Source: an uncultured Eubacteriales bacterium
GTDB taxonomy: Bacteria; Bacillota; Clostridia; DSM-8532; CAYYEC01
DNA: 13,127 bases
Direction: 5' to 3'
Assembly: GCA_964470745.1 (NCBI GenBank)
Contig: CAYYEC010000047.1
Coordinates: forward strand, 1 to 13,127
In this document: positions 1,048 to 13,127 of the stretch, piece after piece
Position numbering within the stretch: the stretch's first letter is position 1
Layout of the letters: every line of letters begins with the position of its first letter
Program-made: the position numbers and the translations under genes
The notes under the pieces: generated by a model
Database searches by the model: none
What the model saw: the letters and a program-made list of their open reading frames with translations, nothing else
Told to the model about the DNA's origin: nothing

Positions 1048-1116
1048 AATTACATCGACAACACAAAGAAGTACATACTACAATTGAGCTTATTAGTGAA
1101 AGGGGGAATAAGTAGG

Positions 1117-1377
1117 ATGTCAAATATTATAAAGATTAAGAGTGCTTTAGCTGTAGGACTCTGGATTATATTTTTTAGCGTTAAAAGAGTTGTTGATCCA
1201 ATATTTACTACAGAACAAGCACTAAAGCAAATGGAGGATACAGCAGCATCTTTTTATAGTCCGTCAATATATCAACAGTTGTGGAGTTTTGCCTGGTTGA
1301 TTCCATTATTTATTTGCTTGGTAATTTTTAAAAATGAAATTACAAATTTTTATTACAAAAAAAGAGGGGGATTTTGA
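1117..1377 (+). CDS. Small hypothetical membrane protein (86 aa, two predicted TM helices)
   Basis: ATG at 1117 is preceded by AAGGGGG (1099-1105) at 11 nt spacing. The TTG at 1084 that starts the listed ORF has no SD. Two hydrophobic segments are ALAVGLWIIFFSV and LWSFAWLIPLFICLVIF. The last codons (KKRGGF*) encode the SD of the next gene. Confidence 0.5.
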   Translation: MSNIIKIKSALAVGLWIIFFSVKRVVDPIFTTEQALKQMEDTAASFYSPSIYQQLWSFAWLIPLFICLVIFKNEITNFYYKKRGGF

Positions 1378-1379
1378 TT

Positions 1380-2318
1380 ATGAAAATAGCAAAGAAAACA
1401 ATTATTATTACAATGAGTTTATTAGTGATGACAGTAGTATTTGTGGGGTGTAAGCCATATGATAAGCCTGAATTAGTTACAATTGAACCATCTCAGACTG
1501 CATTTTTAATACCATTAGTAGGTAAGACTTCCGATCAGACAGAATTCATGAGTGAGAAATTTTTAGAAGGAGCAAAGGTAGCTACAAAAGAAATTCAAAT
1601 ACCTCATAGATGGCTACAGGAAGGAAGGGTGGAATATACTGGTAAGTGGATTCCATCAGCGAAATTAATTGTAGTCGAAAGAAAACCTGAAACAAGGGAA
1701 TGGACAGAAACTTCGGGAACAGGTACTTCTTCGAAAAATGAGGGAATTGTTGCAGAATCAAAAGAATCAATAAGCTTTATGGCAAGAATGAATTGTTCCG
1801 CTCAGATAGATGAATCAGATGCAGTAAAATTTTTATATAGATATAATAATAAGGCATTATCTGAAATCATGGATTTTGAATTAAGAGCAAGAGTTGAAAG
1901 TAATTTTGTTGAAGAATGTGCAAAGCTGTCATTAGAAGAAATTCTAATCAAAAAAGGTGAAATTATGGAAAATGTAAGAGAGGATGTTAAACAATATTTT
2001 AAGGAAAGAGGCATAACAGTAACTTCGTTAGGATTAAAAGGAGACTTTACATACGTAAATTCAGAAATACAAAAGTCAATAGATGAAAAGTTTAAATCAG
2101 CACAGGCCTTAATAACTCAAAAAAATGAAAATGAAAGAATTGTAAGCAAAGCAAAAGCTGATGCGGAAGCTATTAAAATACAAGCAGAAACAATTAAAGA
2201 CACTATTAGACTTAAGGAATTAGAAGTACAGGCAAAAACTATCGAGAAATGGGATGGTAAAATGCCTCAGTTTATGGGAGGAGAAAGTGGAACAATTTTA
2301 AATATACCTTTTAATTAA
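1380..2318 (+). CDS. SPFH/band-7 (prohibitin/flotillin-like) domain lipoprotein
   Basis: ATG at 1380 lies 10 nt after AGAGGGGG (1362-1369) and overlaps the stop of the upstream gene, so the two are translationally coupled. The N-terminus MKIAKKTIIITMSLLVMTVVFVGC is a signal peptide with a lipobox-like VFVG|C. The core LRARVESNFVEECAKLSLEEILIKKGEIMENVREDVKQYFKERGITVTSLGLKGDFTYVNSEIQKSIDEKFKSAQAL...AKADAEAIKIQAE follows the band-7 pattern (L..EIL..R.EI...V...L...GI.V..V.I.D...P.EV..A......AE.E..A.I..AE). Confidence 0.7.
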   Translation: MKIAKKTIIITMSLLVMTVVFVGCKPYDKPELVTIEPSQTAFLIPLVGKTSDQTEFMSEKFLEGAKVATKEIQIPHRWLQEGRVEYTGKWIPSAKLIVVERKPETREWTETSGTGTSSKNEGIVAESKESISFMARMNCSAQIDESDAVKFLYRYNNKALSEIMDFELRARVESNFVEECAKLSLEEILIKKGEIMENVREDVKQYFKERGITVTSLGLKGDFTYVNSEIQKSIDEKFKSAQALITQKNENERIVSKAKADAEAIKIQAETIKDTIRLKELEVQAKTIEKWDGKMPQFMGGESGTILNIPFN

Positions 2319-3104: not shown

Positions 3105-4106
3105 ATGAAAAAAATCTACATTATTTTTGCTATAGCTATAATTTTAATAACGGTATTTGTTTTCATGGATTTTAAATTTGAAGAAGAAAATACAGATTTT
3201 TCAACATCATGTAATGATTCAGCTAAAAAAATTATTATGGGCTTTTCTCAAATTGGCTCTGAAAGTGAATGGCGAACAGCAAGCTCGAGATCGATTACTG
3301 AAGCAGCACAGGATGCTGATATAGAATTAAAATTTATGGATGCCCAGCAAAGACAGGAAAATCAGATTAAGGCCATTAGAGGGTTTATTGCACAGAGGGT
3401 TGATATAATTGCATTTACACCAATAATTCAGACTGGATGGGATTCTGTTTTAAGAGAAGCAAGAGATGCTGACATTCCTGTTATATTAGTTGATAGAACA
3501 ATTGATACTGAAGATTCTTCTTTATATGATGCATACATAGGGTCAGATTTTCTTGGAGAGGGAAAAAAGGCAGGCAAGTGGTTGGAAGATAGATTAAGTG
3601 GAATTGACAAGGAGATTAATATTTTTGAGATTGAAGGTACTATAGGTTCTGCTCCGGCTATAGAAAGAAAAGAAGGATTTTACAGTATTATAAAGGATCA
3701 TAAGAACATGAAAATAATTAAGTCAATAGCTGCAGATTTTATGCGTTCAAAAGGAAAAGAAGTGATGGAGGATTATCTAGAATCTCAAGGTTTAGGAATT
3801 GATGTTATCTATTCCCATAATGATGATATGGCATTAGGAGCAATTGAGGCATTAGAAGAAGCTGGTTTGAGGCCGGGAAAAGATATAGTGATAATATCAG
3901 TAGATGCAGTAAGAGGAGCTTTTGAGGCAATGATTGAAGGAAAATTAAATTGTTCAGTAGAATGTAATCCATTATTGGGTCCACAATTAATGAAATTAGC
4001 AAAAAATATTGTTATGGGTAAGGATGTTCCCAAAAAAACTATTGTGAATGAAGCTATATTTACTCAAGAAAATGCTAAGAGTGAGCTACCAAATAGAAAA
4101 TATTAA
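3105..4106 (+). CDS. Membrane-anchored periplasmic-binding-protein-fold sugar sensor (YtfQ-like type I sugar-binding protein), the first component of a three-component system
   Basis: SD AGGAGG is at 3094-3099. The N-terminus MKKIYIIFAIAIILITVFVFMDFKFEEE is a single TM anchor with no lipobox and an acidic stretch after the helix. The body carries GFSQIGSESEWR, QENQIKAIRGFIAQRVDIIAF, IPVILVDR, GTIGSAPAIERKEGF, HNDDMALGAIEAL and PGKDIVIISVD. These match the E. coli YtfQ pattern (GFSQVGSESGWR...QENQIKAVRSFVAQGVDAI...ELQGTVGASVAIDRKKGF...YAHNDDMVIGAIQAIKEAGLKPGKDI) and the binding protein at 7563-8588. Confidence 0.8.
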   Translation: MKKIYIIFAIAIILITVFVFMDFKFEEENTDFSTSCNDSAKKIIMGFSQIGSESEWRTASSRSITEAAQDADIELKFMDAQQRQENQIKAIRGFIAQRVDIIAFTPIIQTGWDSVLREARDADIPVILVDRTIDTEDSSLYDAYIGSDFLGEGKKAGKWLEDRLSGIDKEINIFEIEGTIGSAPAIERKEGFYSIIKDHKNMKIIKSIAADFMRSKGKEVMEDYLESQGLGIDVIYSHNDDMALGAIEALEEAGLRPGKDIVIISVDAVRGAFEAMIEGKLNCSVECNPLLGPQLMKLAKNIVMGKDVPKKTIVNEAIFTQENAKSELPNRKY

Positions 4107-4128
4107 TTGAAAATAAATGGAGGAAAAA

Positions 4129-5613
4129 ATGGTGAATAGTTTTTTTCCTGAATTAATTCATAAATATAGTATAAATAAAAATAAAATCAGTTCAAATATT
4201 AAGCTTTCAATTAGAAGTAAAATCCTTATATCTTTTGTTATTATAATATTAGTAATGATTAGTCTAAATTTGATGCTTTTACTTAGCTCATTAAAATATA
4301 ATAAACAATATAAAACTATAGTGAATAATATAACAACTATAAACAGGATAAATGGCATTTTAAAAACTAGAATTGATTTGGAAATGTGGAATATAGTTGC
4401 AGGGAAAACTGAGTTTAAAGATGGAAATCAATATGAAATAATAAATGACGCAAAACAAAGTATCAGAGAAATTATGGATAATGTAAGACTAGAAGAAAAT
4501 AGAATAAGATTAGATGTTACATTAAGGACTATAGATACACTTACAAACTATGTTGATATAATGGGAAAGCAGATTGAAAATAAAAGTAAAGTTGCAGAAA
4601 ATGAAAAAATTCTAGATGAAATAAGATCTGTTTCTTCTTTAATCGAAGATAATATCCAGGAATTCATATTGAATGAAATAACTTCAAGTGAAAAAGTAAG
4701 TGAAGACTTAGAGAGAAATACAAGCAGATGGCTTCTAACAAATCTTATTGTTATAGGAGTTACATTGCTTTTTTCAATGCTAATGGCTTGGATTATCTCA
4801 GGAAGTATTACCAAGCCTATAAGGGAACTACATAAAACTACTGCTTTGATAGCAAAGGGTAATTTTGATGTAAGGGTTGAACAGAATAGTGTTGATGAAA
4901 TTGCAGGTTTGAGTAGAAGCTTTAATACAATGATTGTTAAAATAAAAGAGCTTATTGAGAGGAATAAAAAGGAACAGGAAAATTTAAAGAAATCAGAGCT
5001 TAAAGTAATGCAGGCTCAAATAAATCCCCATTTTCTATATAATACTCTAGATACAATTGTATGGATGGCAGAAGCAAATAATATGAAGCAGGTCATAGAA
5101 ATAGTAAGAGCATTATCCAATTTTTTTAGGATTACATTGAGTCGTGGGAAAGATTGGATAAGTGTTCAGGATGAAGTAGAGCATGCGAAGAGCTATTTGA
5201 TAATACAAAAAATCAGGTATAGGGATATTTTAAATTTCAGCTTCGATATAGGTGAAGAAATGTTTAGCCATGCAATTTTAAAGTTGACATTACAGCCAAT
5301 AATAGAAAACGCTTTATATCATGGTATAAAAAACAAGAGATCAGGTGGGATACTACAGGTTAAGGGATATAAAGATGAAGACAGGTTGATATTTGAAGTC
5401 ATGGATGATGGTATGGGTATGACAAAAGAACGGCTTAGCGAAATCCAAACAGAACTTAATGTGGATTCTATTGAGCCAGTTCAAAAAGAAAGTGGATTTG
5501 GCCTAAATAATGTACATAGCAGAATAAAACTTTACTACGGTAAACAATATGGAATATCTATAGAAAGTAAGTATAAAGAAGGAACAAAAGTAACAATTTG
5601 TATACCTGCGTGA
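4129..5613 (+). CDS. Sensor histidine kinase, YesM/LytS (COG2972) type: TM1, ~150-aa extracytoplasmic domain, TM2, HAMP, His_kinase (PF06580), HATPase_c
   Basis: The ORF opens at ATG 4117, but GGAGG (4119-4123) favours ATG 4129 or GTG 4132. The domains visible in sequence are:
- TM1: ILISFVIIILVMISLNLMLLLSSL.
- TM2: WLLTNLIVIGVTLLFSMLMAWIISG.
- HAMP: SITKPIRELHKTTALIAKGNFDVRVEQNSVDEIAGLSRSFNTMIVKIKELI.
- His_kinase H-box: QAQINPHFLYNTLDTIVWMA.
- ATPase N-box IIENALYHGIKN and G-box GFGLNNVHSRIKLYYG.
Only 10 nt separate it from the sensor gene. Confidence 0.85.
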   Translation: MVNSFFPELIHKYSINKNKISSNIKLSIRSKILISFVIIILVMISLNLMLLLSSLKYNKQYKTIVNNITTINRINGILKTRIDLEMWNIVAGKTEFKDGNQYEIINDAKQSIREIMDNVRLEENRIRLDVTLRTIDTLTNYVDIMGKQIENKSKVAENEKILDEIRSVSSLIEDNIQEFILNEITSSEKVSEDLERNTSRWLLTNLIVIGVTLLFSMLMAWIISGSITKPIRELHKTTALIAKGNFDVRVEQNSVDEIAGLSRSFNTMIVKIKELIERNKKEQENLKKSELKVMQAQINPHFLYNTLDTIVWMAEANNMKQVIEIVRALSNFFRITLSRGKDWISVQDEVEHAKSYLIIQKIRYRDILNFSFDIGEEMFSHAILKLTLQPIIENALYHGIKNKRSGGILQVKGYKDEDRLIFEVMDDGMGMTKERLSEIQTELNVDSIEPVQKESGFGLNNVHSRIKLYYGKQYGISIESKYKEGTKVTICIPA

Positions 5614-5656
5614 GAATCTTTAATTTGTGCTATAGATAAGATAAAGGGTGAATGAG

Positions 5657-7249
5657 ATGTACAAAATTTTTATAGTTGAAGATGAGATAGTAGTAAGGGA
5701 AGGCATAAGAGATAATATTGACTGGGAAAGCACTGATTTTATTATGGCGGGGGAAGCTCCTGATGGTGAAATGGCTTTACCTTTAATCCAGGAAATTAAG
5801 CCGGATATTCTCATAACTGATATAAAGATGCCTTTTATGGATGGTTTAGAATTGTGTCGTATTGTTAGAAAGAGCATGCCGTGGATAAAAATAGTGATAA
5901 TAAGTGGACATGATGAATTTAATTATGCTAAGGAAGCTATAAGTATAGGGGTTACAGAATATATGTTAAAGCCTGTAAGCTCCGTAGAATTGCTTAAACA
6001 GCTAAATAAAGTAGCTATAAAAATTGAAAATGAAAAAGAAGAAAAAGCAAATATAGAAAAAATAAAAAATCAGTTAAATAGTAACCGGGAATCAATAAAA
6101 GAAAAATTTCTAAATGAAGTATCCCTGGGTATAATTACCACTAAAGAAGCTCTGGAAAAGGCATCTTACTTTAATATAGATTTAGTTTCAAGATATTATC
6201 TTGTTGAAATAATTGAAATAGAAAAAAGTGAAAATATCAAATATTTTAATCAAGAAGAGTTATTAGAAATTGATATTATTATTTCTAATTATATTGAAAA
6301 AAATCCTGAAATAATCAGGTTTAAAAGAAACTTAGAAGAGTTTGTATTAATTATAAAGGGAGAATCTGAAAAAGATCTTGAGGAGATTTCTTATAGGACT
6401 GCCCAGTCTATAAAATATGAAGTTGAAAGAACTACAGAATGCATTCTTTCCATAGGGATTGGAAGTGTTCAAGAAAGAGTTCATGGAATAGCATATTCAT
6501 TTAAAGATGCGTCTACTGCTAACAGACAGAAAATATTGCTGGGAAAAGGGAAAATAATTGATATAAATGATATAAAGATAGATAAGGAAGAAAGTAGACT
6601 GCTTGATATAAGTAAAATAAGTATTACTGATTTTCTAAAAGTAGGCTCTAAGCAAAGTATCAATGGTTTTTTAGATGAATATATAAAATGCCTAAATACT
6701 ACTGGCCTAAAATCAATAATGTATATACATTATGCTTTTTTAAACATTGTATTAAATACTGTTAAATTTATTGAAAACCTGGAAGGTGATAATAAAAAAG
6801 TAATAGAAGAAATATCAAATTCAGAAAACACTTTATTGGGAATCGTTTCTATAAATCAATTCAAAGAGCAGGCTTTTAATATTTTATCGAAGGCTTTTGA
6901 CTATCGAGACAACATTGTGGAAAGTAAATATTTAAATGTAATTGCAATGGCAAAAAAATATATAAATGAAAACTATTCAGATTCTTCAATGTCATTAAAT
7001 TCTGTTGCAGCCTTTGTAAATATCAGTCCAAGTCATTTTAGTACCATATTCAGCCAGGAAACTGGAGAAACATTTATTGAATATTTGACGAAGACAAGAA
7101 TAAATAAAGCTATGGAATTATTAAAGACAACATCTCAAAAAACTTTTGAAATATCTTATGCTGTTGGATATAATGATCCTCATTATTTTAGTCATCTTTT
7201 TAAAAAAGTGACTGGAAGAACTCCAAGAGAGTTTAGGATAAATGAATAA
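5657..7249 (+). CDS. Response regulator, YesN (COG4753) type: CheY receiver plus AraC/XylS helix-turn-helix
   Basis: The ORF opens at GTG 5648. ATG 5657 sits 6-7 nt after AGGGTGA and gives the classic N-terminus MYKIFIVEDE. The receiver Asp is in PDILITDIKMPFMDG. The C-terminal AraC HTH reads MSLNSVAAFVNISPSHFSTIFSQETGETFIEYLTKTRINKAMELL...ISYAVGYNDPHYFSHLFKKVTGRTPREFR. Confidence 0.85.
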   Translation: MYKIFIVEDEIVVREGIRDNIDWESTDFIMAGEAPDGEMALPLIQEIKPDILITDIKMPFMDGLELCRIVRKSMPWIKIVIISGHDEFNYAKEAISIGVTEYMLKPVSSVELLKQLNKVAIKIENEKEEKANIEKIKNQLNSNRESIKEKFLNEVSLGIITTKEALEKASYFNIDLVSRYYLVEIIEIEKSENIKYFNQEELLEIDIIISNYIEKNPEIIRFKRNLEEFVLIIKGESEKDLEEISYRTAQSIKYEVERTTECILSIGIGSVQERVHGIAYSFKDASTANRQKILLGKGKIIDINDIKIDKEESRLLDISKISITDFLKVGSKQSINGFLDEYIKCLNTTGLKSIMYIHYAFLNIVLNTVKFIENLEGDNKKVIEEISNSENTLLGIVSINQFKEQAFNILSKAFDYRDNIVESKYLNVIAMAKKYINENYSDSSMSLNSVAAFVNISPSHFSTIFSQETGETFIEYLTKTRINKAMELLKTTSQKTFEISYAVGYNDPHYFSHLFKKVTGRTPREFRINE

Positions 7250-7562
7250 CTTATAAATTTTAATTTATTGATTATTATATATGAATGTTATTTTTCTTTG
7301 CTCAACATACAAAAAATCAAAAGAAAAAACAGCTAAATCAAAAAAAAATTAACTTAATTTTAAAAAAAACTAGAAGATTTAAAATCAAAAAAAATTTTTA
7401 AACTATTTTAAAATCTATATTCATTGTTTGAAAACTATATAAATTTTATAATTTATTTATCAGATGTAGAGATTGGGCAAGTAGGTTTACTGGATATTAT
7501 TAGCCTCGCTTACTTTTATCTATAAATGATTAATAAAAAATTTTTATTAGGAGGAAAAAATA
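7250..7562 (+). promoter_or_regulatory. 313-bp extremely AT-rich regulatory region upstream of the ABC transporter operon, with repeated TTAAAATC / AAATCA(8-9) motifs that are candidate response-regulator binding sites
   Basis: AAATCAAAAAAAA occurs at 7335-7347 and 7382-7394. TTTAAAATC occurs at 7378-7386 and 7407-7415. There are many A-tracts. A weak promoter candidate is TTGTTT (7424-7429), 17-bp spacer, TATAAT (7447-7452). The SD AGGAGG (7547-7552) lies 10 nt before ATG 7563. Confidence 0.4.
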
Positions 7563-8588
7563 ATGGGAATGAAAAAAATTATCAAAGCAGTTTCATTGAT
7601 GATGGTGTCAGCAATGATGGTGTCAATGGTAGCTTGCACTGGGGCAAGTAAAACAGCTCCAGCGACTTCTTCGGAAACAAAGGCTGAAACTAAAGCAGAC
7701 AAAAAAATAGTATTAGGATTTTCACAAATTGGGGCAGAAAGTGAATGGAGAACAGCTAATACTGAATCAATTAAGCAAGCAGCTGCTGATGCAGGTATAG
7801 AATTAAAATTTGCTGATGCACAAAATAAACAGGAAAACCAGATTAAAGCAATTAGATCATTTATTGCACAAAAAGTTGATGTTATAGCATTTTCACCGGT
7901 TGTTGAAACTGGCTTTGAAACAGTTCTAAAAGAAGCTAAAGCGGCTGGAATACCAGTTATACTTACAGATAGAGCAGTTGATGTAGATGATGATTCTTTA
8001 TATGTAACATTTATGGGATCTGACTTCGAAATAGAAGGAGAAAGAGCTGCTAACTGGCTAATAGAATATATGGATAAAAAAGGTAAAACAGGTGATATAA
8101 ACATAGTTGAACTTCAAGGTACTGTAGGTTCAGCTCCAGCAATTGACCGTAAAGACGGATTTGAAAAGATCCTTAAAGATCATCCAAATTATAAGATAAT
8201 CAAATCACAAACTGGTGACTTTACTCGTGCATTAGGTAAAGAAGTTATGGAAGCTTTCTTAAAATCAGATGGAGATAAAATTGACGTATTATTTGCACAC
8301 AATGATGATATGGCAATTGGCGCAATACAAGCAATCGAAGAATATGGTAAAAAACCAGGTGAAGATATTACAATCGTATCAATCGATGGTGTTAAAGGTG
8401 CGTTTGAAGCTATGATAGCTGGTAAATTAAATTGTACAGTAGAATGTAGTCCTCTTCTTGGACCACAATTGATGCAATCGGTTAAAGATTTAATGGCAGG
8501 TAATGAACTACCTAAGAGAATAGTAACTGAAGAAGGCGTATTTCCGGCAGAAGTTGCTGCTGAAGAATTCCCAAATAGAAAATATTAA
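7563..8588 (+). CDS. ABC transporter sugar-binding lipoprotein, YtfQ-like (galactofuranose/furanose-type); paralogue of the sensor at 3105-4106
   Basis: Signal peptide MGMKKIIKAVSLMMVSAMMVSMVAC with a lipobox (MVA|C), followed by a Ser/Thr/Lys-rich linker. The mature protein aligns colinearly with the sensor: GFSQIGAESEWRTA, QENQIKAIRSFIAQKVDVIAF, IPVILTDR, GTVGSAPAIDRKDGF, HNDDMAIGAIQAIEE and PGEDITIVSIDGVKGAFEAMIAGKLNCTVECSPLLGPQLM. Both end with PNRKY. Confidence 0.85.
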   Translation: MGMKKIIKAVSLMMVSAMMVSMVACTGASKTAPATSSETKAETKADKKIVLGFSQIGAESEWRTANTESIKQAAADAGIELKFADAQNKQENQIKAIRSFIAQKVDVIAFSPVVETGFETVLKEAKAAGIPVILTDRAVDVDDDSLYVTFMGSDFEIEGERAANWLIEYMDKKGKTGDINIVELQGTVGSAPAIDRKDGFEKILKDHPNYKIIKSQTGDFTRALGKEVMEAFLKSDGDKIDVLFAHNDDMAIGAIQAIEEYGKKPGEDITIVSIDGVKGAFEAMIAGKLNCTVECSPLLGPQLMQSVKDLMAGNELPKRIVTEEGVFPAEVAAEEFPNRKY

Positions 8589-8615
8589 GATTTAGTTAAA
8601 ACAAGAATTTGTGAT

Positions 8616-8695
8616 AAAACCACTCCTATCCTATTGTACCTTGGGAAAAACAAGGATGATTAATTCATTTCTTGTAAGGAGTGGTTTTGTTTTTA
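8616..8695 (+). terminator. Intra-operon stem-loop plus U-tract between the binding-protein and ATPase genes; candidate attenuating terminator
   Basis: AAAACCACTCCT (8616-8627) pairs with AGGAGTGGTTTT (8677-8688) in a 12-bp stem. The loop contains an inner hairpin, CCTTG (8639-8643) with CAAGG (8651-8655). GTTTTT follows at 8689-8694. Confidence 0.45.
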
Positions 8696-8743
8696 AAAAT
8701 TATTATTTAAAATGGTGAGAAAATTAAGGAGGTGCATTTTAGA

Positions 8744-10255
8744 ATGTCAAGCAATCCAATTTTAAATATGGTAGGGATATACAAAGAGTTTCCAGGCGTA
8801 AAAGCACTTTCTAATGTGGATTTTAAATTAGGAACAGGTGAGATCCATGCACTTATGGGGGAAAATGGAGCAGGAAAGTCAACATTAATTAAATCACTTA
8901 CAGGTGTTTATAAAATAGAAAAAGGCGAAATTTTTCTAAATGGAAAAAAGGTTGAGATAGATTCGCCACATGAAGCTCAAATGTTAGGTATAAGTACAGT
9001 TTACCAGGAGGTAAACTTATGTCCGAATTTAACTGTAGCTGAAAACATTTTTATTGGTAGAGAGCCAATTAAGAGTTTTAAAATTGATTGGGATGAAATT
9101 AATAAAAGAGCAAAAACTATCCTTTCAAGACTGGATATTAATATAGATGTTACAATGACACTTGACAGCTATTCTATTGCTATACAGCAAATGGTTGCAA
9201 TTGCCAGGGCTCTTGAGATATCTGCAAAGGTGTTGATCTTGGATGAGCCTACTTCAAGCCTTGATACCAATGAGGTAAACAAGCTTTTTGAAGTTATGAG
9301 GAAATTAAGAGAAGATGGGTTGGGTATTATTTTTGTAACGCATTTTCTTGATCAGGTATACGAAGTGTGTGACAGAATAACTGTTCTGAGAAATGGTCAA
9401 CTGGTAGGAGAATATGAAATTGAATTTCTGCCAAGAATTGAATTAATATCTAAAATGATAGGAAAAGAATTTGATTCTTTTGAATCTATGAAGAAATCTG
9501 TAAGTACTATGGAAAAAGAGAATTCTGAAAACAGTTTTATAAGATTAAAAGGGCTGGGACAGAAGTCAACTATCAGTTCAGTAGATTTAAATATTAATAA
9601 AGGTGAAGTAATAGGTTTAGCAGGGTTATTAGGTTCTGGAAGAAGTGAAATTGCAAGGTTGATATTTGGAGTTGATAAGGCTGATTCCGGTGAAATCTAC
9701 ATAGAAGGTAAAAAGGTAACTATTACATCACCGGGAGAAGCTATGACTCATCAAATGGCTTTTTGTCCTGAAGATAGAAAAGTAGAAGGTATTATAGGAG
9801 ACTTAACCATAAGAGAAAATATTATTTTGGCTATACAATCCCAAAAAGGATGGTTTAGATATATTGGTAGAAAGGAACAGGAAGAGATAGCAAACAAGTA
9901 TATTAAGCTTCTAAATATAGTTACACCAAGTTGTGAACAGAAAATAGAGAACTTAAGCGGAGGTAATCAACAAAAGGTTATTCTTGCCAGATGGTTGGTG
10001 ACTGAACCAGAATTATTAATACTTGATGAACCAACCAGAGGTATAGATGTTGGTGCAAAGGCCGAAATTCAGAAGTTGGTACTTGAATTAGCTGAGGAAG
10101 GCATGTCTATAATGTTTATTTCCTCTGAGCTGGAAGAAACAGTAAGATGTTGCAACAGAGTAGTTGTGTTATGTGATAGAAAAATTGTTGGAGAACTTTC
10201 TTCAGAAGAAATAAGTGAAAATAAAATTATGCAAATTATCGCAAAGGAGGCATAG
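8744..10255 (+). CDS. Sugar ABC transporter ATP-binding protein with two tandem ABC domains (YtfR/RbsA/MglA-like)
   Basis: The ORF opens at GTG 8732, which lies inside the SD AAGGAGG (8726-8732). ATG 8744 (MSSNPILNMVGIYKEF) is the likely start. N-domain: Walker A GENGAGKST, signature LSGGNQQ-like motif, Walker B VLILDEPTSSLD. C-domain: GLLGSGRSE, LSGGNQQKVILARWL, LLILDEPTRGIDVGAK. Length is ~500 aa. Confidence 0.85.
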   Translation: MSSNPILNMVGIYKEFPGVKALSNVDFKLGTGEIHALMGENGAGKSTLIKSLTGVYKIEKGEIFLNGKKVEIDSPHEAQMLGISTVYQEVNLCPNLTVAENIFIGREPIKSFKIDWDEINKRAKTILSRLDINIDVTMTLDSYSIAIQQMVAIARALEISAKVLILDEPTSSLDTNEVNKLFEVMRKLREDGLGIIFVTHFLDQVYEVCDRITVLRNGQLVGEYEIEFLPRIELISKMIGKEFDSFESMKKSVSTMEKENSENSFIRLKGLGQKSTISSVDLNINKGEVIGLAGLLGSGRSEIARLIFGVDKADSGEIYIEGKKVTITSPGEAMTHQMAFCPEDRKVEGIIGDLTIRENIILAIQSQKGWFRYIGRKEQEEIANKYIKLLNIVTPSCEQKIENLSGGNQQKVILARWLVTEPELLILDEPTRGIDVGAKAEIQKLVLELAEEGMSIMFISSELEETVRCCNRVVVLCDRKIVGELSSEEISENKIMQIIAKEA

Positions 10256-10257
10256 GG

Positions 10258-11337
10258 ATGAAAAACTTATTAAATATGCTGAAGCGCTTTTCAAAATGGA
10301 GATTATTTGGTCCATTTATTACATTGGCTTTGGTTCTTATGTTTAATGTGATATTTACACCTGGGTTCTTTCATTTGGAGATCAAAGATGGGCATTTGTT
10401 TGGAAGTCTAATAGATATACTAAACCGTGGTTCGAGTACCATGATTATGGCTGTAGGATTAACATTTGTAGTGGCTACGGGAGGTATTGATATTTCAATA
10501 GGATCCATGATAGCTATAACAGGTGCTGTAGCAGCGACATTAATTGGTGGAGAACTGGTAATTGTTGATGGCGTTCAAGAGTATGTATCATTACTACCTA
10601 TGCCTATTGCTATATTAGCAGCTCTGGCTGTTGCTATTGCTCTTGGAATGTGGAATGGAACTCTTGTTGCCAGGATAGGAATTCAGCCTGTAGTCGCTAC
10701 ATTAATATTACTTACTGCCGGTAGAGGTATCGCACAATTATTAACTAAAGGACAAATAATTACTATATATTATAAACCATATCATTTTATTGGTACAGAA
10801 TACTTACTCGGATTACCATTCTCAATTTATATAGTAGTATTTATATTAATTCTCTCATTATTGACTGTTAAGAAGACAGCTCTTGGATTGTTTATTGAGT
10901 CAGCAGGATGTAATCCTGTTGCCAGCAAATTTGCAGGAATAAAAGTTAAGAAGATAATTTTTTGGTCATATGTTTTTTGTAGTTTTTGTGCAGGTATAGC
11001 TGGATTAATTATTAGCTCAAATGTTAAGAGTGCAGATGGGAACAATGCAGGTCTGTTTAAAGAAATGGATGTTATTCTAGCAGTAGCACTTGGAGGTAAT
11101 TCTCTAAATGGAGGAAGATTCTCTTTAGTGGGAAGTGTTATTGGAGCATTGATTGTTCAATCCATTGATACAACAATATATTCAGTAGGTATTCCTCCAC
11201 AAATAAGTAAAATTATTAAAGCTGTTGCTGTAATTATAATATGTTTGGCACAGTCTCAACCGTTTAATGATAAAATGTCAAAAGTTTTTAAAAAAAGAGG
11301 GGGTCTAAAATATGAAGAAAATGCAGTTAAATTATAA
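10258..11337 (+). CDS. Sugar ABC transporter permease, RbsC/YtfT-like (BPD_transp_2)
   Basis: ATG 10258 is 9 nt after AGGAGG and 2 nt after the ATPase stop. Multiple TM segments. The family motif TGGIDISIGSMIA is present. Confidence 0.85.
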   Translation: MKNLLNMLKRFSKWRLFGPFITLALVLMFNVIFTPGFFHLEIKDGHLFGSLIDILNRGSSTMIMAVGLTFVVATGGIDISIGSMIAITGAVAATLIGGELVIVDGVQEYVSLLPMPIAILAALAVAIALGMWNGTLVARIGIQPVVATLILLTAGRGIAQLLTKGQIITIYYKPYHFIGTEYLLGLPFSIYIVVFILILSLLTVKKTALGLFIESAGCNPVASKFAGIKVKKIIFWSYVFCSFCAGIAGLIISSNVKSADGNNAGLFKEMDVILAVALGGNSLNGGRFSLVGSVIGALIVQSIDTTIYSVGIPPQISKIIKAVAVIIICLAQSQPFNDKMSKVFKKRGGLKYEENAVKL

Positions 11338-12286
11338 GTATTTACCTCTGACGATAACAATTTTATTATTTGTTGTATTGTTTATGGCAGGTTCCTTAAA
11401 ATATACAGGTTTTTTCTCATTACAAGTTATAATGAATTTATTTATTGATAATGCTTTCCTTATAATAGCAGCTATAGGTATGACATTTGTTCTTTTAACA
11501 GGAGGAATCGATATTTCGGTTGGATCTGTAATTGCTTTAAGCTGTATGATAGCAGCCGATTTACTTGAAAATAAGCATATGAACCCGTATCTTGTTATGT
11601 TGATTGTATTACTTGTAGGTACAACAATTGGGTTTATTATGGGATATCTTATTCACTACTTTAAATTGCAGCCATTTATTGTTACTCTGGCTGGACTGTT
11701 CTTTGCACGTGGATTATGCTATATAATCAGTATAGGAAGTATAAGCATAAATGACCCTATATTTAAGAATATATCCCAGTTTAGAATACCATTGCCGGGA
11801 AACGCATTTGTATCAATTAGTGTTATTATTACGATAGCTATGATTATACTTGCAGTTTATTTAGCTCATTATACAAAATTCGGAAGAACAGTCTATGCAA
11901 TAGGTGGTAACGAGCAGTCAGCACTTCTTATGGGATTACCTGTTGCAAAAGTTAAAGTTTTGGTATATACCCTGAATGGTTTTTGTGCAGCATTATCAGG
12001 TCTCGTATTTTCCTTTTACATGCTTTCAGGCTATGGACTAACAGGTGTAGGTATGGAAATGGACGTAATTGCATCAGCAGTTATAGGTGGTACATTATTG
12101 ACAGGTGGAGTAGGATTTGTTATAGGTTCTGTATTTGGAGCATTAATACAAGGTATTATCCAAACAATAATTACCTTTCAGGGAACATTAAGCCCTTGGT
12201 GGACAAGGATAATTGTAGCATTGCTAATATGTGTATTTCTTTTATTGCAGAGAATGCTGCAATCTTTTAAGGTAAAAAAAGCATAG
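11312..12286 (+). CDS. Second sugar ABC transporter permease, YjfF-like (BPD_transp_2)
   Basis: ATG 11312 is 7 nt after AGAGGGGG, which is encoded by the KKRGG codons of the upstream gene. It overlaps the previous gene by 26 nt. The motif TGGIDISVGSVIA is present, with 8-9 predicted TM segments. Confidence 0.85.
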   Translation: MKKMQLNYKYLPLTITILLFVVLFMAGSLKYTGFFSLQVIMNLFIDNAFLIIAAIGMTFVLLTGGIDISVGSVIALSCMIAADLLENKHMNPYLVMLIVLLVGTTIGFIMGYLIHYFKLQPFIVTLAGLFFARGLCYIISIGSISINDPIFKNISQFRIPLPGNAFVSISVIITIAMIILAVYLAHYTKFGRTVYAIGGNEQSALLMGLPVAKVKVLVYTLNGFCAALSGLVFSFYMLSGYGLTGVGMEMDVIASAVIGGTLLTGGVGFVIGSVFGALIQGIIQTIITFQGTLSPWWTRIIVALLICVFLLLQRMLQSFKVKKA

Positions 12287-12486: not shown

Positions 12487-12531
12487 TAATATAAATTTTA
12501 ATAACTGACATATAATATCGGAGGTTTGATT

Positions 12532-13127
12532 ATGATAAATTTTGAGTTTTTAAGTCCTACAAAAATAATATTCGGAAAAGGTACTGAAAGTAAGGTTGGT
12601 AGTGAGACTTGTAAATATAGCAAAAAGATTTTACTTCATTATGGAGGCGGAAGCATAAAAAGATCCGGTCTTTATGATAAGGTAGTTAAGTCTTTAAGTG
12701 AAAGTGGAGTGGAATTTCTTGAGCTTGCAGGAGTTAAGCCAAACCCAAGGCTTAACATGGTTAATGAAGGTATTGAATTATGTCGTAAGGAAGATATCAA
12801 CTTTATACTTGCTGTGGGTGGTGGAAGTGTAATTGATTCTGCTAAAGCTATTGCAATGGGAATACCATATAAAGGTGATGTGTGGGATTTCTATACAGGT
12901 AATGCAGAAGCTAAGGAAGCGCTGCCAATCGGAGTAATTCTTACAATTCCTGCGGCAGGTAGTGAAGCAAGTCCAGCTACGGTTATTACAAATGAAGATG
13001 GATGGTATAAGCGTGGAGTAAATGCGGAGGTACTAAGACCCGTTTTTTCCATACTAAATCCGGAACTTACATACACGCTGCCGCTAAACCAGACTGTTGC
13101 AGGTGCAGCTGACATAATGGCCCATAT
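12532..13127 (+). CDS. Iron-containing (group III) alcohol dehydrogenase, NADH-dependent butanol-dehydrogenase-like; N-terminal 198 codons, continuing beyond the window
   Basis: GGAGG (12520-12524) is 7 nt before ATG 12532. The translation is MINFEFLSPTKIIFGKGTESKVGSETCKYSKKILLHYGGGSIKRSGLYDKVVKSLSESGVEFLELAGVKPNPRLNMVNEGIELCRKEDINFILAVGGGSVIDSAKAIAMGIPYKGDVWDFY...LPIGVILTIPAAGSEASPATVITNEDG...VLRPVFSILNPELTYTLPLNQTVAGAADIMAH. This closely follows the BdhA/BdhB pattern (PTKVFFGKG...YGGGSIKRNGIYD...ELSGVEPNPR...LAIGGGSAIDCSK...GDTWD...LPIASILTLSATGSEMD...DPTYTYTVPKNQTAAGTADIMSH). It is absent from the ORF track because it has no stop in the window. Confidence 0.8.
   Translation, partial: MINFEFLSPTKIIFGKGTESKVGSETCKYSKKILLHYGGGSIKRSGLYDKVVKSLSESGVEFLELAGVKPNPRLNMVNEGIELCRKEDINFILAVGGGSVIDSAKAIAMGIPYKGDVWDFYTGNAEAKEALPIGVILTIPAAGSEASPATVITNEDGWYKRGVNAEVLRPVFSILNPELTYTLPLNQTVAGAADIMAH

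Follow-up and report, generated by a model that had tools for sequence, protein, structure and literature searches.

A candidate three-component furanose sensor encoded beside a GafABCD-type importer in an uncultured clostridial genome

Here, I describe a stretch of 13,127 bp (~30% G+C), analysed as one contig (CAYYEC010000047.1, assembly GCA_964470745.1) of an uncultured Eubacteriales bacterium and hereafter called the window, in which seven open reading frames (ORFs), all on the + strand, fill positions 3105-12286. The first three encode a binding protein, a sensor histidine kinase and a response regulator, and the other four an ATP-binding cassette (ABC) transporter with its own binding protein. 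The reading that I favour, and that I consider fairly probable, is that the first three products form a three-component sensor for an extracellular furanose, most likely the furanose form of L-arabinose, which turns on the neighbouring importer of the GafABCD type. The module is real, well defined and widespread, and overturns no concept; what I infer are the ligand, the docking of the binding protein on the kinase, the phosphorelay, the DNA site bound by the regulator and activation as the direction of control.

The sensing genes code for an anchored binding protein of the GafA/YtfQ family, the putative sugar sensor (3105-4106; Peripla_BP_4, 159.7 bits), with a strong ribosome-binding site, AAGGAGG, ahead of its ATG; for a YesM-type sensor histidine kinase (4117-5613; HAMP 48.3, His_kinase PF06580 94.6 and HATPase_c 46.7 bits in Pfam); and for a YesN-type response regulator (5648-7249; Response_reg 86.2, GGDEF_2 28.8, HTH_18 74.5 and HTH_AraC 71.2 bits). 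The transporter genes code for a GafA/YtfQ-type lipoprotein, that is, the transporter binding protein (7563-8588; Peripla_BP_4, 176.1 bits), for a tandem-domain ABC ATPase of the YtfR/GafB type with two ABC_tran domains (8732-10255), and for two permeases with a BPD_transp_2 domain each, the first of the YtfT/GafC type (10258-11337) and the second, overlapping it by 26 nt, of the YjfF/GafD type (11312-12286). An earlier note on this DNA, made from its letters alone, had proposed the same seven genes, and the ORF listing bears out their coordinates and strand; likewise, the Pfam search places the kinase (HAMP/PF06580/HATPase_c) and the regulator (Response_reg/HTH_18) within the YesM and YesN classes, as the note had assigned them. 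Since ribosome-binding sites suggest it, three starts are shifted: the kinase more likely begins at ATG 4129, which has GGAGG just 5' of it and at which the database copy of the protein (P0001) also begins, whereas ATG 5657 and ATG 8744 are the likely starts of the regulator and of the ATPase. The gap between sensor and kinase genes, given before as 10 nt, becomes 22 nt with the start at 4129, and that between kinase and regulator genes, given as 44 nt, becomes 43 nt.

The two binding proteins share 60% identity over 295 residues, which agrees with their description as close paralogues. In NCBIfam the top family is YtfQ for both (346.2 bits for the sensor, 366.3 bits for the transport protein), other families being far weaker (RbsB 107 and 106 bits, xylF 50 and 63 bits, respectively). 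They had been called YtfQ-like, and these scores say the same and set them apart from XylF; a reading of the locus as a xylose system was dropped on this ground. Both proteins fall below the YtfQ equivalog cut-off of 510 bits and are, on their scores, members of the family without certification as equivalogs of E. coli YtfQ. Their nearest solved structures are GafA of M. smegmatis, GafA of Shewanella and YtfQ of E. coli (E 8e-81 to 8e-105): the sensor matches M. smegmatis GafA (6hyh/6hbd) at E 8e-98, followed by Shewanella 5ocp and E. coli 2vk2, and the transport protein matches 6hb0/6hbd at E 8e-105, 5ocp at 1.7e-92 and 2vk2 at 2e-83. XylFII is absent from the 60 best PDB sequence matches of the sensor.

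The sugar pocket points in the same direction. The W-R of GxESxWR, the D of (L/V/T)DR and the F of (G/A)DF occur in both window proteins and in 64/64 sensor-type orthologues; the Trp, Arg and Asp singled out in the GafA paper, together with eight more motif residues, do not vary among the 64 binding proteins encoded next to the kinase in the related loci described below, and the motif residues common to the three solved GafA/YtfQ proteins are also kept in both proteins of the window. In GafA, the Trp and the Phe stack on the sugar while an Arg-Asp salt bridge sizes the site (Drousiotis et al. 2023); in the same paper, YtfQRT-YjfF was renamed GafABCD and GafA proteins were found to bind furanoses. 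Residues that discriminate sensor-type from transport-type proteins are universal in only 2 of 283 alignment columns, and no docking surface is deducible from them.

The N-terminus of the sensor, MKKIYIIFAIAIILITVFVFMDFKF, is a hydrophobic helix without Cys at its end, whereas the transport binding protein carries a lipobox, SMVAC. A strict lipobox pattern is present in 46 of the 64 orthologous kinase-adjacent binding proteins, and in most of the remaining ones, including all ten closest to the window, the signal peptide can be seen by eye to end in a Cys. Anchoring without a lipobox, which had been noted as a feature of the sensor, thus stands for the window protein but not as a general trait, since most orthologues have the Cys; the predicted uncleaved anchor is a local variant of membrane tethering. 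Because most orthologous sensors bear a lipobox, lipoprotein status neither backs nor refutes a role in sensing.

The kinase consists of a first transmembrane helix (TM1), an outer domain of ~150 residues, a second transmembrane helix (TM2), HAMP, the PF06580 domain with the H-box NPHFLYNTL, and the ATPase; Pfam and the translation, in which two hydrophobic segments are seen, confirm the layout that had been drawn for it. Its catalytic half is matched by PDB 6swj (E 9e-32). The kinase as a whole has thousands of relatives, of which the best 120 are full-length and 50-66% identical, N-terminal half included; orthologues are annotated as YesM by JGI. Out of 1.84 billion proteins, a profile of the N-terminal domain retrieves 467 cluster representatives (260 with E <= 1e-10), and for this reason the outer domain is regarded, by its profile, as a distinct sensor-domain family of moderate size. 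An AF2 model of the N-terminal 203 residues, built from the alignment, reaches a pLDDT of 84.5 and has four long helices, which form a bundle between the membrane helices. With this model, a Foldseek search of 350,542 PDB chains returns as its top match 5xsj_L, namely LytSN of the XylFII-LytSN complex (target-normalised TM-score 0.86, rmsd 2.2 Å over 121 columns, 17% identity, E 2e-3). The likeness to the xylose sensor XylFII-LytS-YesN that the earlier note had seen is therefore retained for the architecture and for the fold of the outer domain, but not for sequence similarity to LytSN, which is undetectable; by kinase sequence or N-terminal profile, no other solved sensor domain is detected in the PDB either. 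According to a review, XylFII docks side-on to the LytSN bundle, and xylose joins two heterodimers into a heterotetramer.

When species-representative genomes were scanned with the alignment of the sensor domain, 182 relatives came up. The 80 best loci, to which the counts in this text refer, were annotated by BLAST against the window proteins and the arabinose enzymes of one locus; about ten belong to Bacillota and Calditrichales genomes and about seventy to Chloroflexota. A GafA-like gene adjoins the kinase gene in 76/80 loci, as does the regulator gene (76/80), and a complete two-permease transporter lies adjacent on the same strand in 55/80; five loci hold the sensing genes alone, without a transporter for at least 5 kb on each side, and twenty are truncated or uncertain. 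The linkage of the module is thus kept across three phyla, with the order binding protein-kinase-regulator in the Bacillota type, to which the window conforms, and regulator-kinase-binding protein in Chloroflexota. In a neighbour-joining tree without support values, the kinase-adjacent binding proteins form their own clade per phylum inside the GafA family; the tree sorts sensor and transport copies by phylum, and the number of duplications is left uninterpreted for want of those support values. Twelve loci, namely L006 and eleven of Chloroflexota (L022, L023, L030, L042, L051, L057, L063, L067, L073, L075 and L078), have a single GafA-like gene, placed between kinase and ATPase; by analogy with ChvE, this suggests that one GafA-like protein may serve both signalling and transport there. 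The single-copy proteins fall partly with the transport-type and partly with the sensor-type copies in the tree.

Two variations on this theme were observed among the related loci. In Anaerobacterium chartisolvens (L001/L010) the binding protein, kinase and regulator genes form an orphan operon, with no transporter within 10 kb. In L009 (13393-14403) and L013 (13519-14547) the transporter binding protein is 36% identical to that of the window and scores 140 bits to YtfQ, and genes of fucose-isomerase-like proteins lie on both flanks; the same sensor type may be paired there with a transporter for another sugar.

As for the regulator, its translation retains the receiver motifs VEDE, ILITD and LKP unbroken. 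The sensor operon is preceded by a putative sigma-70-type promoter, TTGCCA-18-TGcTATAAT (2897-2926, + strand; consensus match 11/12, extended -10 TG), which the earlier note had pointed out and which is the best sigma-70-like match in the window; promoter-like matches as a whole are in slight excess in this AT-rich DNA (89 found versus 70.5 ± 7 in shuffles). The spacer between the regulator and transporter genes (7250-7562) is 313 bp long, exactly the length reported earlier for an AT-rich region, and has 17.6% G+C. Several Bacillota-type loci carry, upstream of the gene for the transporter binding protein, two direct repeats (an A-tract followed by AACTT) that are 21-22 bp apart. Nine such sites, all of them ahead of transporter genes in Bacillota-type loci other than the window, went into a weight matrix; over both strands of the window, it scores highest at 7338-7358 (+), within the spacer, with 15.6, the next best being 12.8. 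With a weaker unit seen by eye at 7359-7379, 21 bp further on, this makes 7338-7379 (+) a candidate regulator-binding site. In L004, a locus outside the matrix set, paired matrix sites with 21-bp spacing precede the transporter as well as the sensor operon, and the strongest A-tract/AACTT site of all (score 21.9), in A. chartisolvens (L010, 8756, +), immediately precedes the orphan sensing operon, a hint that the operon may regulate itself there and have a target further away. Three copies of AAATCAAAA(A/G)AAAA...AAC within 7313-7405 (+), at ~7314, 7335 and 7382 (spacing 21 and 47 bp), overlap the candidate operator; they are of low complexity and A-rich, and chance is hard to exclude for them.

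Downstream of the candidate operator, a putative activator-dependent promoter of the transporter operon, TTGTTT-17-TATAAT (7424-7452, +), was read from the sequence. Its -35 is weak (3/6) and fails the -35 criterion of the promoter scan, as would be expected if an activator were needed. For the transporter leader (7455-7565), the predicted fold is no more stable than that of shuffled sequences (z = -1.06).

These elements can be arranged into the following scheme. The promoter at 2897-2926 would drive the sensor, kinase and regulator genes; the GafA-family sensor, tethered to the outside of the membrane through its uncleaved N-terminal helix, would capture the sugar in the conserved GafA pocket and, once loaded, dock on the four-helix-bundle outer domain of the kinase, as XylFII does on LytS. 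The signal would pass via TM2 and HAMP to the PF06580/ATPase core, where the kinase would autophosphorylate on the His of NPHF and hand the phosphate on to the receiver Asp of the regulator. The phosphorylated AraC-type regulator would then bind the direct repeats at ~7338-7379 and activate the adjacent transporter operon from the weak -35 promoter at 7424-7452, so that the four transporter genes, from that of the lipoprotein GafA paralogue to that of the second permease, are transcribed, while a hairpin after the binding-protein gene (see below) would probably yield a surplus of binding-protein transcript. Whether control rests entirely on the three-component system, as it appeared to the earlier note, is more than a single contig of 13 kb allows one to judge, and the idea is weakened by LacI-type regulators beside related modules and by an AraR-type one in the locus of Pseudobacteroides cellulosolvens (L011).

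Regarding the sugar, the earlier expectation of a furanose or another non-xylose sugar is upheld and can be sharpened to L-arabinose by two lines of evidence: araA, ribulokinase or araD genes lie within 10 kb in 18 of the 80 related loci, and a link of gafA to arabinose use has been published. The calls of these enzymes exceed the NCBIfam cut-offs (837 > 622, 761 > 428 and 341 > 251). A case in point is L011, where the order is GafABCD; sensor, kinase, regulator; an AraR-type GntR/PBP regulator; an isomerase; ribulokinase and AraD; and a GH43-CBM6-dockerin protein. Shewanella GafA is specific for L-arabinofuranose, and gafA is often found in araBAD clusters and never with galactose genes (Drousiotis et al. 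2023). On these comparisons, L-arabinose as the signal has a somewhat better than even claim, the sensed form being probably L-arabinofuranose; the assignment is comparative and rests on other genomes because the window itself holds no arabinose gene. A bolder version, which I put forward only tentatively, is that the GafA-paralogue sensor would read the ring form as such, namely L-arabinofuranose fresh from arabinan or arabinoxylan before mutarotation, and would be the first signalling system of this kind, widespread in Chloroflexota and cellulolytic Clostridia. If so, ring-form sensing would amount to a signal of "fresh hydrolysis nearby", separate from bulk arabinose.

In L011 (80-20537) the module sits inside a cellulosome-linked arabinose island, with dockerin-bearing esterase-like and ricin/cytochrome c-like proteins encoded upstream. 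The isomerase of this locus is fucose-isomerase-like, 510 aa long and without an NCBIfam match; it may be a non-orthologous L-arabinose isomerase.

Several observations weigh against an arabinose-responsive sensor that activates the adjacent importer. The locus and its orthologues are known from sequence alone. By Pfam and flank annotation, no arabinose catabolic gene is found in the 13-kb window, and at the position of Shewanella Phe40, which has been proposed to keep galactofuranose out (Drousiotis et al. 2023), there is a Ser in the sensor and an Asn in the transport protein, as in the dual-binding GafA of M. smegmatis. LytSN (5XSJ) is not found by sequence in the PDB, either by phmmer at E <= 1 or by profile search at E <= 10. 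Bundles of four helices are a common fold, and the E-value of the Foldseek match is modest. The twelve loci with a single binding protein indicate that separate sensor and transport copies are not obligatory. The candidate cis motif is A-rich and set in AT-rich DNA, and the matrix scan does not clearly find it in the related loci L005, L007 and L011. In addition, the terminator scan detects no evident terminator 3' of the regulator gene, and read-through from the sensor operon into the transporter genes is possible.

Some of these points bear directly on the identity of the ligand. The same mechanism could have D-galactofuranose, e.g. from fungal or bacterial glycans, as its physiological signal, or respond to both furanoses equally. 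The NCBIfam families that best match the window proteins carry the name of this sugar; E. coli YtfQ and M. smegmatis GafA bind it, the latter taking both sugars; in the published model, a small residue such as Ser or Asn in place of Phe40 leaves space for a longer sugar; and the window, as said, is devoid of ara genes. Yet araA, ribulokinase or araD accompany the related loci as described above while galactose genes are not seen among those annotated, and the published survey reports no link of gafA to galactose catabolism, so that galactofuranose appears an unlikely signal, albeit the foremost competitor of L-arabinose.

Other doubts concern the division of labour between the proteins. The kinase-adjacent protein might be a second capture subunit of the transporter, with the outer domain of the kinase sensing the sugar, or something else, directly. 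The high identity and the shared pocket of the two binding proteins are compatible with this, as are the twelve single-copy loci and the fact that the two-component part of the Ruminiclostridium cellulolyticum system keeps a weak response without its binding protein. However, the sensor gene shares the orientation of the kinase and regulator genes and lies close to them, and between it and the transporter there are 3.4 kb and a probable promoter; a binding-protein gene stays next to the kinase in nearly all loci, at least five of which have sensing genes and no transporter for at least 5 kb on each side; sensor-type proteins fall in clades apart from the transport-type; and the closest structural relative of the outer domain acts via a bound binding protein. 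Taken together, a mere capture role is very doubtful. Slightly more doubtful still is a scenario in which the sensor is genuine but has its main target elsewhere, the adjacency reflecting a shared substrate and the transporter obeying a distant regulator of the AraR/CcpA type. This would accommodate the LacI-type and AraR-type regulators beside related modules, as well as the A. chartisolvens motif upstream of a sensor operon that has no transporter nearby. Against it stand the best motif match of the window, which lies upstream of the transporter gene, the poor -35 of the transporter promoter, which looks as if an activator were needed, and the characterised analogues, in which the adjacent transporter is the target; moreover, searches of the window for catabolite-responsive elements (cre) and AraR boxes gave chance-level matches, none of them convincing in either promoter region. 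An arabinose-type furanose sensor that controls the importer next door is hence still preferred.

The importer itself deserves a closer look. Its ATPase has YtfR as top NCBIfam family (720.7 bits, below the cut-off of 850; AraG 516 and the xylose ATPase PRK13549 479 bits), permease 1 has YtfT (317.6 bits, below the cut-off of 535), and permease 2 has YjfF, whose score of 441.7 bits is above the curated cut-off of 363 and makes it the sole transporter part to pass. Taken as a set, the YtfQ, YtfR, YtfT and YjfF families lead far over the ribose, xylose, arabinose-pyranose and galactose systems. The two-permease YtfQRT-YjfF layout described in the earlier note is thus recovered, with a fused double ATPase and two separate BPD_transp_2 permeases.

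Between the binding-protein and ATPase genes, RNA folding reveals a branched terminator-like hairpin that ends in a U-run (8613-8694, +). The fold of 8586-8735 has an energy of -35.6 kcal/mol (z = -3.57; 0/200 shuffles equally stable); the GC-rich core stem is CCACUCCU/AGGAGUGG, followed by UUUUGUUUUU, and a simple terminator scan misses it. As an internal terminator or attenuator, the hairpin may determine how much binding protein is made relative to the transporter; to go by the title of one reference, a comparable device fixes subunit ratios in clostridial ABC operons. A second, weak hairpin with a T/A-rich run (2957-2978, +) occurs in the ~180-nt leader of the sensor operon and is probably due to chance, given 7 terminator-like sites versus 4.6 expected. 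In Bacillota-type loci, a palindrome, YTCTTCC(C/G)(G/C)GGAGAAG, was noticed 53-137 nt before the start of the transporter binding protein and past the apparent -10 (L004 13292, L008 13220, L009 13340, L012 11184 and L013 13466, with a variant in L006). The window lacks it, Rfam offers no match for it, and it could be an RNA hairpin or the operator of a second regulator. An Rfam scan of the window and six related loci returned only a tRNA, in L012.

The flanks of the module hold genes of a different kind. A DUF1836 gene (273-854, - strand; 120.8 bits with the stop read as Tyr) is interrupted by an in-frame TAA at 627-629, at the conserved KK-Y-SKDHI position; either the gene has acquired a nonsense mutation or become a pseudogene, or the stop is a sequencing error. 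The flanks also hold the C-terminus of a membrane protein without Pfam match and a DUF3784 gene. At 1084-2318 (+), a membrane ORF of 97 residues, again without Pfam match, overlaps by 4 nt the gene of a 314-residue SPFH/Band 7 protein with a lipoprotein-like N-terminus, and at 12520-13127 (+) the gene of an iron-containing alcohol dehydrogenase runs off the contig end. A relation of the SPFH gene pair and of the alcohol dehydrogenase to sugar use is not obvious.

If the proposed function is correct, the module would bring to three the monosaccharide specificities of the few binding-protein-dependent kinase sensors known in Gram-positive-type bacteria, after xylose and the arabinose of Geobacillus, and the GafABCD furanose transporters would gain a dedicated regulator, which is unreported in the GafA paper. 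Chloroflexota, in which carbohydrate sensing has hardly been studied, have the most members of the family, and one characterised member would annotate several hundred sequence clusters. A practical use can be envisaged as well, namely an arabinose-responsive pair of sensor and promoter for clostridial engineering.

How does the module compare with known systems? A literature search, incomplete in its coverage, found no description of a GafA/YtfQ-type sensor with a YesM/YesN pair; a paper on R. papyrosolvens reports one "galactofuranose" transporter and three two-component loci that contain binding proteins, without saying if the transporter belongs to one of these loci. The GafABCD/YtfQRT-YjfF transporters of E. 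coli, M. smegmatis and Shewanella sp. ANA-3 resemble the window in their best-matching families, in the pocket residues kept and, through the related loci, in the araBAD link. The window differs from them in that a GafA paralogue has apparently been recruited as a signalling subunit; the GafA paper makes no mention of a kinase, a sensor or a two-component system.

CuaDSR-CuaABC of R. cellulolyticum, a cellobiose system, resembles the window in having a dedicated sensing protein beside a two-component system and, next to these, an ABC transporter with a paralogous binding protein, which in R. cellulolyticum is induced by the two-component system. Its 2:2 complex was modelled on XylFII-LytSN; unlike the window, it employs a family-1 binding protein and a disaccharide ligand. 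Closer in ligand is AraPST-AraEGH of Geobacillus stearothermophilus, which has the same three-component logic, probably the same sugar, and a CUT2 arabinose transporter. Shulami et al. 2011 reportedly described AraPST as a binding protein, a kinase and a regulator that sense extracellular arabinose, with separate binding proteins for sensing and for transport. Along the same line, the Geobacillus system and the P. cellulosolvens locus both combine the sensor with an AraR-type regulator. By their descriptions, the two transporters are set apart: AraEGH is a three-gene CUT2 system, taken to have a single permease, whereas that of the window is of the two-permease GafABCD type, and the binding protein of the Parageobacillus orthologue of AraEGH is ChvE-like, unlike those of the window.

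Finally, XylFII-LytS-YesN of Clostridium beijerinckii is built from the same parts: a membrane-associated Peripla_BP_4 protein, a PF06580-type kinase with two transmembrane helices and a receiver/AraC regulator, next to a CUT2 ABC transporter (xylFGH) that uses a paralogue of the sensor as its binding protein. The outer domain of the kinase has the same four-helix-bundle fold, LytSN being its top PDB match. The window departs from it by GafA/YtfQ-type proteins, two permeases, a sensor domain without detectable similarity to LytSN, and a likely ligand that is L-arabinose or another furanose rather than D-xylose. To sum up, of the traits compared computationally, the module has the architecture and the fold of the XylFII-LytS class and lacks only sequence homology of the sensor domain; as far as the model of the outer domain goes, it is tied to the xylose system by the way in which it is built and folded rather than by close family.

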